Shown here one piece after another: positions 10,582 to 64,000 of a stretch of 64,000 nt of DNA (within the stretch, counting starts at the first letter, position 1; each line of letters starts with the position of its first letter). The notes below the pieces were generated by a model. That model searched no databases and had not been told where the DNA came from. It worked only from the letters and a program-made list of their open reading frames with translations. A program made the translations under genes and the position numbers. The DNA is from Escherichia phage vB_EcoS_ESCO40: the sequence record NC_106514.1. One strand, 5' to 3'.

Positions 10582-11341
10582 ACTGAACTGGAACGTAGAA
10601 GGTGTAACCGAGTCTCTGAAAGCAAAAGCCACTGCTCTGGGTGTTGATGTAATCTCTCAAGAACAAGTAGCTACTATCGCTGCTGAACTGGCCGCTGAAA
10701 CTGGCAAAGACGTTACCGCTCGCTCTGTTGGCTCTAAGCTGCGTAAAGAAGGTTTCGAAGTACAGAAAGCTAACGAAGTACAGAAATCTCCGTGGACTCC
10801 TGAGCAGGAAGCTGAACTGGTTGATTTCCTGAACGCTCATGCTGGTCAGTATACTTATGCTGAAATCGCTGCTGCTGTAGCTGGTGGTCAATTTGGTGCT
10901 AAGCAGGTACAGGGTAAGATCCTGAGTCTGGAAATGACCGCTTCTGTTAAACCAACTGAAAAAGCTGCTGCTGTTCGTTCCTTCACTCCGGATGAAGAAA
11001 CTGACTTTGTTAATCAGGTTGTTGCTGGTGCTACTATTGAAGCTATCGCTGCTCACTTCGGTCGTAATATCAAGCAGATCCGTGGTAAAGCTCTGAGTCT
11101 GCTGCGTGAAGGTCGTATCGCTGCTATGCCGGTACAGGAAACTTCAAGTGCTAAAACCCGTGAAGATCTGTTAGAAGGTCTGGATCTGGCTAATATGACC
11201 GTTGCTGAGATCGCTGAGAAAACTGGTAAGTCTGAGCGCGGTGTTAAATCTATGCTGTCTCGTCGTGGTCTGGTTGCTAAGGACTATGATGGTGCCGCTA
11301 AGCGTGCTAAACTGGATGCAAAAGCTGCGGCTGCTGAATAA
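10574..11341 (+). CDS. hypothetical abundant protein with internal repeats
   Basis: Three to four internal copies of a TxxE(I/V)AxxxG...SL-R-G module; host-preferred codon usage. Confidence 0.55.
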   Translation: MSKLNWNVEGVTESLKAKATALGVDVISQEQVATIAAELAAETGKDVTARSVGSKLRKEGFEVQKANEVQKSPWTPEQEAELVDFLNAHAGQYTYAEIAAAVAGGQFGAKQVQGKILSLEMTASVKPTEKAAAVRSFTPDEETDFVNQVVAGATIEAIAAHFGRNIKQIRGKALSLLREGRIAAMPVQETSSAKTREDLLEGLDLANMTVAEIAEKTGKSERGVKSMLSRRGLVAKDYDGAAKRAKLDAKAAAAE

Positions 11342-54608: not shown

Positions 54609-55343
54609 TTAGGCAACTTTTAATTTCTCGATGTACTGTTGCGGGCTGCAACTATATTCTGCGCGTTCTTCCTCGGTCATACTTTCCCAGCATAATTTTA
54701 AACGGTCGGCTAGAAATTGATAATCATTATCATCCTCAAGAGATTCATCAATAAAGGTTTCACCTATCAATGTGACACCGATTGATAGAATATCGTTAAT
54801 AGCTTGCGCGTCCAGCGTTTTAAATCCGTATGATGCCGCCGCTGATAGCACGCCTTTATGATCATCAATCATAGTAAAATCAGCGTTCGGATAAAGCTGT
54901 TTAAATAACTCAAAGTAATGGCTTTTATATATAGCGTCTTTACTGTGGTATATTTCGCTAACTTTATCAGCTTCAAAATATTTGTGCAGTGTATCGCGGG
55001 AAAATACGCGGATATTACTATCCCCACGCCCTCGCAGTCCTTGCTTGCGTAGGTAATAATAATCGGACTTGCTCATCAGTCGAGCGGTGCAGATAATGTT
55101 TAACGTGTTAACGTCATTCATACATTGGCGCATATATGTAACAAGCGGCAAGAGTGTATCTTGCATTATTAAATCGTGTTTACATGCTTCATTCTTGTAC
55201 TTATTTAGATCTAGATTGCCGTCGCTATCAAAGCAAGGCGCTACGCGATGGAATGAATTAACGATAGTGCCATCTAGATCCCAAATCATGACGCGGGAAA
55301 TATGCGGGAAATTACGGGTAATATTCGTTTTAACTTGATTCAT
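54609..55343 (-). CDS. dmp: HAD-family deoxyribonucleoside 5'-monophosphatase-like protein
   Basis: 244 aa; MIWDLDGTI HAD motif I; position next to A2-like and A1-like genes. Confidence 0.6.
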   Translation of the reverse strand: MNQVKTNITRNFPHISRVMIWDLDGTIVNSFHRVAPCFDSDGNLDLNKYKNEACKHDLIMQDTLLPLVTYMRQCMNDVNTLNIICTARLMSKSDYYYLRKQGLRGRGDSNIRVFSRDTLHKYFEADKVSEIYHSKDAIYKSHYFELFKQLYPNADFTMIDDHKGVLSAAASYGFKTLDAQAINDILSIGVTLIGETFIDESLEDDNDYQFLADRLKLCWESMTEEERAEYSCSPQQYIEKLKVA

Positions 55344-59754: not shown

Positions 59755-59805
59755 ATAAGCATAAATTAATGAGATAATAATAATTATAAGAAATCGTAAC
59801 CAATA

Positions 59806-59897
59806 GAAATAATAACTATAAAAATAATAACTATAAAAATAATAACTATAAAAATAATAACTATAAAAATAATAACTATAAAAATAATAACTATAAG
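59806..59897. repeat. 15-bp tandem repeat, about 6 copies
   Basis: AATAACTATAAAAAT repeated head to tail. Confidence 0.9.
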
Positions 59898-59994: not shown

Positions 59995-60044
59995 CTTATC
60001 CACAGACTTATCCACAGGTTATCCTACTGTATAAATATACAGGG
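59995..60044 (+). promoter_or_regulatory. composite element A: two tandem DnaA boxes plus a LexA-box-like palindrome
   Basis: TTATCCACA at 59996-60004 and 60008-60016, then TACTGTATAAATATACAGGG (CTGT-N8-ACAG) at 60025-60044. Confidence 0.55.
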
Positions 60045-62954: not shown

Positions 62955-63064
62955 ATACTGTATAAATATACAGTAGAATAACCTGGGGATAAGTCTGTGG
63001 ATAACGCTTCAAAATGGCTAGGATTCTGTCAAGGCAAATCGTGCTGTTGATAAGTCTGTGGATA
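62955..63064 (-). promoter_or_regulatory. composite element B: LexA-box-like palindrome plus two DnaA boxes, inverted relative to element A
   Basis: TACTGTATAAATATACAGTA at 62955-62974 (one mismatch to the SOS-box consensus as recalled); TGTGGATAA at 62995-63003 and 63056-63064. Confidence 0.55.
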
Positions 63065-63093
63065 ACCTAAATAACAGTGTTTCTCACTTCCAT

Positions 63094-63290
63094 TCTTAAA
63101 TGAGAATCATTATCATTCGCATTCCACTATCTAACCGATAATCATTTCCTTTCTTAAATGAGAATCATTTCACTTTTTGAATAGTTCTCATTCTCTTTCT
63201 TAAATGAGAATCAATCTCATTTCATTTTCTAAATGCGAATTATTATCATTCTCATTCCGCTTTTTAAATGATAATGATTCTCATTATCAT
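63094..63290. repeat. array of about 5 AT-rich direct repeats (TCTTAAATGAGAATCAT-type)
   Basis: Copies at about 63094, 63153, 63198, 63227 and 63262; the last contains GATAATGATTCTCATTATC, 17 of 19 matches to the Fur-box consensus as recalled. Confidence 0.7.
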
Positions 63291-63328
63291 TCGCATTCAG
63301 GCGAGCAGGGCAATTGCCCTGCGCTTTT

Positions 63329-63929
63329 GTGCAAATCCGACAATTGCTCCAAGGGTTACGTGCTGGCGTGTATGTGCAAATCCGACAATTTTTGGTAGTG
63401 TGCAAATCCGACCCGAAAAATTTTTATAGTGTGCGAATCCGACAATGAATTTTCCTAAAAACTCCAGCAATCACGAACTGCGTTCGAATCCTGTGGGATA
63501 TGTGCAAATCCGACACGGTTTTTCTAGGATTAAGATGTGCGAATCCGATGAAGTTTTTGTGAGTTCGATTGGAAGGTGTGTGATTGTATGGGTTTGTGGA
63601 GAAGGTGAGAGAGCGAGAGAAATTTGGTGGGCTAGAAGGATGTGGTCGCAGGATTGGTGTGGAGCACCTGGTTTGCGGGGATTTTGGGGAAGAGTTGAGA
63701 TAATTTGGGGAAATTTGAGATAGGTGCAGAAAAAGTAAAATTTTATTAGCAAAATGGGGCAAAATAGCTTGACAAGTGAAAATTCTTGTGGCTCTAAAAA
63801 CTCAGGCAATCATGGGCCTTCGGCCCGAAATAATGCTGCTATTTTCAGGAGAGTAAGAGTTCCTAAAAACTTAGGCGTTTGTGCAAATCCGACCATAAAT
63901 TTCTAGAAACACAATGTGCGAATCCGACA
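63329..63929 (+). repeat. eight dispersed direct copies of a 14-bp motif GTGC(A/G)AATCCGA(C/T)
   Basis: Copies at 63329, 63374, 63400, 63431, 63502, 63537, 63881 and 63916, all in the same orientation, each followed within 12 nt by a T-run. Confidence 0.85.
63575..63730 (+). other. G+T-rich strand-asymmetric tract
   Basis: About 150 nt almost devoid of C on the plus strand (GGTGTGTGATTGTATGGGTTTGTGGAGAAGGTGAGAGAGCGAGAG...). Confidence 0.7.
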
Positions 63930-63970
63930 GTAATTTCTGGAAATGTGTTTTCAAAAAATGTCTTCTAGAA

Positions 63971-64000
63971 ATAACCGCCCTCCCTATAACCGCCCTCCCT
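63971..64000 (+). repeat. 15-bp direct repeat, 2 copies, at window edge
   Basis: ATAACCGCCCTCCCT twice in tandem. Confidence 0.8.

Follow-up and report, generated by a model that had tools for sequence, protein, structure and literature searches.

Fur-box-like sites in the repeat block of a T5-type injection stop signal region

Here, we address the question of why a short AT-rich repeat array in a T5-like phage carries sequences that resemble binding sites of the host regulator Fur. A reading made from the sequence alone had described five copies of a repeat within ~200 bp, the last of which matched the 19-bp Fur-box consensus at 17 positions, and had suggested a Fur-titrating or Fur-regulated element, which would fit the receptor use of such phages; as alternatives, it named iterons for a phage DNA-binding protein and a chance match in AT-rich DNA. 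The locus touches on an old problem. The stop of T5 DNA transfer after 8% of the genome has been a question since the 1960s; the pause does not need phage protein synthesis, and the phage DNA-binding protein A2 is needed for the second-step transfer.

Location of the array in the T5 map

The 64-kb window (the whole stretch of DNA that was analysed) represents the right half of a T5-like (Tequintavirus) genome, and its first gene is Sir2-like with a T5 counterpart at 56.4 kb. The final 1.2 kb of the window is 92.7% identical to BF23 and 88.5-88.7% identical to T5, and the features annotated under this alignment read 'left terminal repeat', 'injection stop signal (iss)' and 'major DNA single-chain interruption', together with named repeats and palindromes. 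Aligned to T5, the terminal repeat extends in the window from ~54485 to ~63793. Positions 63084-63298 are orthologous to copies 1-4 of T5 direct repeat C, to DRE and to palindromes E-I of the iss region; DRE is Davison's name for the T5 repeat block (Davison 2020, bioRxiv 10.1101/866236). The parts also follow each other as in T5, i.e. palindrome D, DnaA boxes, repeat block, palindrome J with the 7.9% nick, D repeats and the end of the terminal repeat. Judged from homology, from this order of parts and from the right end of the terminal repeat lying beside the 7.9% nick, the array is the repeat/palindrome block of a T5-type injection stop signal region, a link that the sequence-only reading had not made.

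The features of this region and of its surroundings are as follows (window coordinates, with the strand where one applies; scores in bits are from the Fur matrix described below):

54718-54732: perfect 7-1-7 Fur motif TGATAATCATTATCA, with 19-mers of 23.6 and 17.1 bits
62956-62975: LexA/SOS-box-like palindrome TACTGTATAAATATACAGTA, which is T5 palindrome D; 19/20 to the consensus
62984-63065, minus strand: two pairs of DnaA boxes (reverse complements), TGGGGATAA at 62984 with TGTGGATAA at 62996, and TGTTGATAA at 63045 with TGTGGATAA at 63057
63084-63298: whole array, AT-rich (28% G+C), with five direct units and one inverted partial unit
63096-63120: unit 1, a pair of Fur-like 19-mers at 63096 and 63102, offset by 6 bp, 18.0 bits each
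63154-63172: unit 2, a weak Fur-like site, 10.7 bits
63177-63195: inverted partial unit TTGAATAGTTCTCATTCTC, a weak Fur-like site, 11.3 bits
63200-63224: unit 3, sites at 63200 (12.7 bits) and 63206 (10.8 bits), offset by 6 bp
63229-63259: unit 4, sites at 63229 (12.7 bits), 63235 (19.2 bits) and 63241 (8.3 bits), in 6-bp steps
63264-63294: unit 5, with the Fur box flagged originally, sites at 63264 (14.5 bits), 63270 (26.0 bits) and 63276 (12.1 bits)
63301-63325, plus strand: GC-rich hairpin GCAGGGCAATTGCCCTGC, which is T5 palindrome J; terminator-like shape, GCGC at 63321-63324
63328-63928, plus strand: T5 direct repeat D, eight dispersed copies of TGTGC(A/G)AATCCGA(C/T), i.e. TGTGCAAATCCGAC, starting at 63328, 63373, 63399, 63430, 63501, 63536, 63880 and 63915

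Palindrome D has the CTGT-N8-ACAG core and matches the 20-bp LexA consensus TACTGTATATATATACAGTA at 19 positions, with 0.01 such matches expected by chance; a second LexA-like copy is present at 60025-60044 in the inverted partner region, and palindrome D is conserved in T5, EPS7 and the Pantoea, Proteus and Vibrio relatives. The stretch of DnaA boxes is the IRD'-spacer-IRC' of Davison (Davison 2020, 10.1101/866236), and the hairpin GCAGGGCAATTGCCCTGC corresponds to the major nick of T5 at 7.9%. By the sequence of its neighbors, the array stands in a row of near-consensus boxes (LexA, DnaA) for abundant host proteins. It is positioned between convergent transcription units, the pre-early and the early genes.

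The iss of T5 (Repeat Region 3; AY587007, AY543070; Heusterspreute 1987; Davison 2020, 10.1101/866236) is the same locus, with 88.5% identity over 1.2 kb; the array is its orthologue and shows no structural difference from it. Our contribution is to read the repeat block as Fur boxes and palindrome D as a LexA box. While the block has been annotated for decades, this reading as a cluster of operator-grade Fur boxes with a LexA box has, as far as the literature could be searched, apparently not been proposed before: the accessible literature on the T5 iss mentions neither Fur nor LexA, we found no paper tying Fur or LexA to T5, and papers from 2023 and 2026 describe the stop signal only as repeats, palindromes and DnaA boxes.

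Repeat units and their likeness to Fur boxes

We found a 28-nt repeat family with five copies, starting at 63084, 63142, 63188, 63217 and 63252 and sharing 75-100% identity. Thus, the five-copy repeat described before is real, while its span is wider than first drawn and reaches from ~63084 to 63298. The 17-mer TCTTAAATGAGAATCAT is present exactly at 63094 and 63152, with one mismatch at 63198 and with three at 63262, giving a total of four matches compared with 0.57 expected; the fifth copy, at 63227, differs at still more positions. Periods of 23, 29 and 35 nt were detected by Tandem Repeats Finder. The units are spaced irregularly (58, 46, 29 and 35 nt) and occur in both orientations.

The units follow a common grammar, in which runs of GNNAAT/ATTNNC hexamers in an F-F-x-R-R layout generate overlapping 19-mers at 6-bp offsets. 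The array contains 16 such hexamers compared with 3.0 expected, and unit 5 has the layout F-x-R-R-R (GATAAT g ATTCTC ATTATC ATTCGC). The resulting runs of sites at 63096/63102, 63200/63206, 63229/63235/63241 and 63264/63270/63276 have the hexamers and the spacing of Fur sites. A 6-bp step between sites is reported for genuine E. coli Fur clusters (Chen et al. 2007, PMC2189734), which likewise consist of multi-hexamer runs, and the phage scores equal or exceed the native ones. Two matches to the 7-1-7 motif are present in the array, each with one mismatch; unit 1 includes TGAGAATCATTATCA, which differs from this motif at one position.

The site GATAATGATTCTCATTATC at 63270-63288 matches the 19-bp Fur consensus at 17 of the 19 positions on the plus strand, as noted before, and even at 18 on the minus strand (GATAATGAGAATCATTATC). 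In the whole window, five matches to the consensus with at most three mismatches were found compared with 0.06 expected. For scoring, we built a symmetric matrix from 12 Fur-controlled promoter regions, of which 11 are from MG1655 (fepA-fes, fepD-entS, fepB-entC, fhuA, fur, tonB, cirA, exbB, ryhB, fecI and fhuF) and one is the iucA region of a ColV-type plasmid. The best sites in these 12 native regions match the consensus at 12-17 of the 19 positions, compared with 18 in the phage site. With 26.0 bits, the flagged site has the highest score in the 64 kb, and the native operators, scored by leave-one-out, all lie below it (9.3-22.2 bits). The last copy is also not alone in being Fur-like: three further sites in the array score 18-19 bits, a stretch of 200 bp contains four sites that reach 15 bits or more and eight that reach 12 bits or more, and overall thirteen overlapping 19-mers reach at least 8 bits. 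Altogether, the sequences of the array score like the best natural Fur sites.

In 54.8 kb of other E. coli DNA, the matrix gave only two matches of at least 12 bits (maximum 14.6). Dominance of the matrix by iucA was considered and rejected, because the site still scores 25.0 bits once iucA is omitted. The likeness to the iucA region is close. A 42-nt sequence, which we take to be the aerobactin Fur operator, was found ~20 bp upstream of iucA on 791 plasmids, and the 19-mer GATAATGAGAATCATTATT upstream of iucA on ColV-type plasmids is identical to the phage site at 18 of the 19 positions. The array itself had no blastn match in E. coli genomes, a result that is not informative.

Because the region is repetitive and has a G+C content of 28%, a single Fur-like unit could have arisen by chance and been multiplied by duplication. 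However, when the score was set against shuffled AT-rich controls, as had been suggested, none of 5000 local dinucleotide shuffles of the region attained the maximum, any of the site counts or the sum of scores seen in the array, and only two of 3000 column-permuted matrices equaled the observed maximum. In addition, the likeness persists across subfamilies and recurs in an unrelated phage (see below). A chance match is thereby contradicted, and we regard this explanation as so improbable that it can be set aside.

All matches of at least 15 bits across a T5-type genome lie inside the terminal repeat. They include the perfect 7-1-7 motif TGATAATCATTATCA, which is located inside the 3' end of a dmp-like ORF, with the left boundary of the terminal repeat ~230 bp away. 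This motif encodes DDNDYQ, is weakened in EPS7 by a synonymous change and is missing in My1. We therefore downgraded it as independent support; it may be a by-product of coding for DDNDYQ, and its membership in the system is uncertain.

The units also depart systematically from the Fur consensus. In 78% of them, position 9 is G instead of T, giving GAGAAT or GCGAAT rather than GATAAT. Positions 1-2 also differ, with TT in place of GA; moreover, the flanks of the units are conserved beyond any Fur box. When AAATG, rather than the matrix, was used as the anchor for picking units, these equaled the consensus at 8.8 of the 12 non-anchor positions compared with 3.7 expected. Because of the systematic departures and the conserved flanks, the true binder could prefer a site that is related to, but different from, the Fur box.

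Conservation in T5 relatives and in Phapecoctavirus

To follow the array in other phages, we compared 33 distinct arrays from 37 viral-contig loci and five GenBank phages. Fur-like sites are present in all 33 arrays, and in 32 of these, the best site reaches at least 15.6 bits and three to eight sites reach at least 12 bits each. The best sites score 20.7 bits in T5, 15.6 bits in EPS7, 19.2 bits in a Klebsiella phage, 21.7 bits in Pectobacterium phage My1, which belongs to another subfamily, and 19.8 bits in Pantoea phage AAS21. Weaker arrays were found in Proteus phage 1 (15.2 bits) and in Enterobacter phage KKP_3711, which has only one weak unit (13.0 bits). My1 and several Tequintaviruses also have a unit-like palindrome, TGAGAAT-N-(A/G)TCTCA, at the very left end of their genomes.

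The T5-like phages of Vibrio keep the LexA box, the DnaA boxes, the GCGC hairpin and the D-type repeats, but the slot of the array is occupied by unrelated repeats. In VCPH, these are CAACTGTTGCG units of 15 nt, present ten times, and in D30, there are four AT-rich units of ~50 nt each. Vibrio Fur recognizes the same box. Because these phages have refilled the slot while the box recognized by the host's Fur is the same, the function of the slot does not depend on Fur as such, and the Vibrio relatives are a real counter-argument to Fur as the selected partner.

In blastn searches, the array also matched 150-kb myoviruses of the genus Phapecoctavirus. In Phapecoctavirus nepoznato, three to four units with a spacing of 29 nt, e.g. 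CTAAATGAGAATGATTATCATTTAC (20.9 bits), are located in an 800-bp gap between convergent genes, and another unit is located in a second large non-coding region. The likeness does not extend beyond the array. None of the ORFs of the terminal repeat, including A2, has a homologue in nepoznato at an E value of 1e-4 or better, and the proteins that the two phages have in common according to blastp with all ORFs are Sir2, NrdA/B/D, PhoH, phosphatases, HNH nucleases and a few short hypothetical ORFs. This list contains no evident DNA-binding protein, and a phage-encoded binder common to the T5-like phages and Phapecoctavirus was rejected on these grounds. Because nepoznato has the same units without sharing a protein of the terminal repeat, a host factor accounts for its units, as far as sequence comparison goes, more readily than a common phage protein would.

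Possible functions of the array

Given boxes of operator quality, the array could be, as suggested at the outset, a Fur-regulated promoter or operator, or a sponge that derepresses host iron uptake for phages that use siderophore or vitamin receptors. By our own rough estimate, two arrays per genome with ~10 dimers each on hundreds of genomes could approach the Fur pool late in infection. However, native Fur operators overlap the promoter of a gene that they repress, while the phage array has neither a promoter nor a gene: a promoter scan gave five promoter-like sites, all weak, compared with 3.6 in shuffles, i.e. no excess, and no downstream ORF or Rfam RNA was found at the array. A promoter or small RNA in the array was rejected on this basis, and the location between convergent transcription units also speaks against such a role. 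We conclude that the array is not an operator for an iron-regulated gene. Moreover, host DNA is degraded during the injection pause; titration of Fur to raise receptor expression therefore makes little sense, as nothing would be left for derepression. Finally, the array is also present in EPS7, whose receptor is BtuB, in an unrelated myovirus and in phages that infect Klebsiella, Pectobacterium and Pantoea, and thus does not track the use of siderophore receptors; the proposed link to these receptors was rejected. Both the operator and the sponge are, in our view, very unlikely. Of the original Fur proposal, the resemblance stands, being beyond chance and conserved, while the rationale from regulation and receptor use does not.

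It is also conceivable, but highly improbable, that the block is part of a plasmid-like replication origin formed by the DnaA boxes, the AT-rich block and the TGTGCAAATCCGAC iterons. The layout, in which DnaA boxes at 62984-63065 are combined with an array of 28% G+C and with eight dispersed 14-mers, is reminiscent of oriC and of plasmid origins, a resemblance that was also noted by Davison. Against this idea, the origins of T5 have been mapped near the center of the genome and the replication genes lie outside the first-step DNA (Davison 2020, 10.1101/866236). In addition, the irregular spacing of the units and their occurrence in both orientations, with one unit inverted, differ from the phased iterons of such origins, and no initiator gene is nearby.

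An unlikely, though more serious, explanation is that the array acts as DNA structure, i.e. that hairpins, cruciforms or a bend beside the nick stall the DNA within the tail or the channel or, alternatively, give the packaging machinery a mark at the terminal-repeat end, in which case the Fur likeness would be incidental. As single-stranded DNA, both strands fold far better than shuffles (z = -7.1 and -6.6), units 1 and 5 form a perfect 19-nt inverted repeat, the iss has classically been viewed as a region of repeats and palindromes, and other repeats occupy the slot in the Vibrio phages. However, strong folding follows automatically from repeated palindromic protein sites. A conserved long-range hairpin between units 1 and 5 was rejected, because the pairing is lost in the close relative L013 and there is no covariation. 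Structure alone also explains neither the identity of the hexamers with those of Fur operators, for which the column-permuted matrices served as control, nor the presence of the same unit sequence in an unrelated phage.

The iteron alternative of the sequence-only reading has fared better and is a live rival, to which we lend some, albeit limited, credence. In its general form, the units are iteron-like sites for a different dimeric protein, from the phage (e.g. A2) or the host, that recognizes a site close to TAAATG(A/C)GAAT-N-ATT(A/C)TCATT, which overlaps the Fur box. The conserved departures from the Fur consensus and the conserved flanks of the units argue in its favor. The lineage-specific replacement of the array in the Vibrio relatives is as expected if a phage protein and its sites co-evolve, and the A2 homologue of Vibrio phage D30 is annotated as a DNA binding protein. 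A further argument is the palindrome at the left genome end in My1 and several Tequintaviruses, which points to a phage-specific function at either end of the first-step DNA. On the other hand, a chance overlap that gives an 18/19 match and 6-bp phasing of the Fur type is improbable. As for a binder from the phage, Phapecoctavirus has the same units without a homologue of the terminal-repeat proteins at the E value cutoff given above, and Pfam searches with ten pre-early ORFs returned only DUF7566 and no DNA-binding domain.

We suggest, with a rough probability of 0.45 and thus slightly short of even odds, that the array is a loading platform for multiple dimers of host Fur within a composite of sites for host proteins at the boundary between the first-step and the second-step DNA, and that its role is architectural rather than regulatory. 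This suggestion builds on the sequence grammar of the units, their statistical strength, their position and their conservation. According to this model, several Fur-Fe2+ dimers of the host would load on the array, which is immediately preceded by the LexA-type box and the four DnaA boxes and immediately followed by the nick hairpin and the TGTGCAAATCCGAC repeats. We infer that host proteins already present in the cell would bind this stretch on its arrival in the cytoplasm, and that the nucleoprotein complex would help to hold the boundary between the two portions of the DNA, or to insulate it, until A1 and A2 of the phage relieve it. Alternatively, the complex may act as a roadblock that keeps apart the pre-early and the early transcription units, which converge here. 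Fur-like sites at this location suggest that host DNA-binding proteins may help to make the pause; however, it is not obvious how a cytoplasmic binder of internalized DNA would stop DNA that has yet to enter the cell. Fur also cannot be essential for the growth of T5, as the phage plates normally on fur mutants. In a bolder version, which we consider rather improbable, LexA, DnaA and a Fur polymer on adjacent boxes in the part of the first-step DNA that enters last would be the long-sought host component of the pause, A1 and A2 would dismantle it to restart transfer, the iron, SOS and replication state of the host could tune two-step injection, and Phapecoctavirus would use host Fur in a similarly non-transcriptional manner.

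If the reading with Fur and LexA is true, the vague 'host component' of the T5 pause would become three named proteins and, thus, testable, and a virulent phage would be using a cluster of transcription factor sites for a non-regulatory purpose. If Fur is not the binder, the search is narrowed to a dimeric protein that recognizes TAAATG(A/C)GAAT-N-ATT(A/C)TCATT. A cluster of sites without regulatory function has a precedent in E. coli datA, which titrates DnaA. Like the phage array, datA is a cluster of high-affinity transcription factor sites without a gene; it differs in the protein and in the purpose, titration being that of datA. Closest in concept is the model proposed by Davison for the T5 stop, in which consensus boxes for an abundant host protein in the iss, i.e. 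the DnaA boxes, hold the DNA; the proposal made here differs in that the protein is Fur and the sub-region is the one adjoining the DnaA boxes. Finally, Fur boxes are also carried by phage genomes upstream of the sitABCD morons of lambdoid prophages (PMC6969025). The sitABCD box is an ordinary operator of an iron-transport gene in a lysogen, while the array described here is present in a virulent phage and controls no gene.

Array-type units beyond the window

Array-type units, here spaced 29 nt apart, also occur in an unrelated phage, the Phapecoctavirus nepoznato. They are found in two of its large non-coding regions, and one of the two is flanked by convergent genes, the same placement as in T5. 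Similar matches came from ESCO13, ukendt, iGC_PHA_EC001, and Klebsiella ZCKP1. A unit-like palindrome (16-19 bits on the Fur matrix) lies at the extreme left terminus of the genome in My1 and several Tequintaviruses, and a degenerate version is found at this place in the window (~54500) and in T5. Array-type units can therefore mark the first-step DNA, the part of the genome injected before the pause, at its two ends. The Vibrio T5-like phages retain the LexA box, the DnaA boxes, the GC hairpin with GCGC, and the D-type repeats; the array slot in VCPH and D30 is occupied by other repeats.

Array-type units and array-slot repeats in related and unrelated phages
L054:2486-2605 (NC_052658 ~73690-73805), array-type units of nepoznato
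NC_052658 ~63950-63985, array-type units of nepoznato, other location
L014, L016, L024, L034, and L048, nt ~18-38, unit-like terminal palindrome TGAGAATGAGTCTCA, read in the same direction as the window
L057 (My1), nt 14-38, My1 form of the terminal palindrome, TGAGAATAAGTCTCA
L055:2620-2800 (VCPH), ten 15-nt CAACTGTTGCG units in the array slot
L063 ~10790-11020 (D30), four AT-rich units of ~50 nt each in the array slot, read as reverse complement

Fur-like sites outside the array

Fur-like sites outside the array
L050:1001-1031 (EPS7), extra Fur-like site GATATTGATAATCATTCTC, 23 bits
Window 54718-54732, 7-1-7 Fur motif with no mismatch, TGATAATCATTATCA, 23.6 bits (19-mers at 54713 and 54719)

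The extra site, present in Epseptimavirus-type relatives (EPS7, L022, L042, and L043), is accompanied by a 17-bit site 6 bp apart. It falls between genes of the rightward pre-early operon, ~700 bp ahead of the array, and in that position could serve as a true operator. The 7-1-7 motif is located within the 3' end of a dmp-like ORF on the minus strand (54609-55343); the left end of the terminal repeat is ~230 bp away. Close relatives conserve the motif, whereas it is weaker in EPS7 and missing from My1; it may simply result from the coding of DDNDYQ.

Palindrome D and other repeats

LexA/SOS-box-like palindromes in the window
62956-62975, TACTGTATAAATATACAGTA, the T5 'palindrome D', 19/20 matches to the consensus
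60025-60044, second copy, in the inverted partner region, 17/20 matches to the consensus

Palindrome D is kept in T5, EPS7, and the Pantoea, Proteus, and Vibrio relatives; we found no mention of its LexA/SOS-box likeness in the accessible iss papers. A 15-nt tandem repeat, AATAATAACTATAAA (59776-59896; 7.9 copies, 88% matches), adjoins the DnaA boxes of IRC/IRD (59934, 59997, and 60008). The 20-nt direct repeat TTTGGGGAAGAGTTGAGATAA, present twice at 63683-63722, is T5 direct repeat A, which a TTTGAGATAAT motif 3' of the nepoznato array (L054 ~2822-2860) loosely resembles. Finally, ATAACCGCCCTCCCT forms two tandem copies at 63971-64000; because this run is cut by the window end, further copies may follow.
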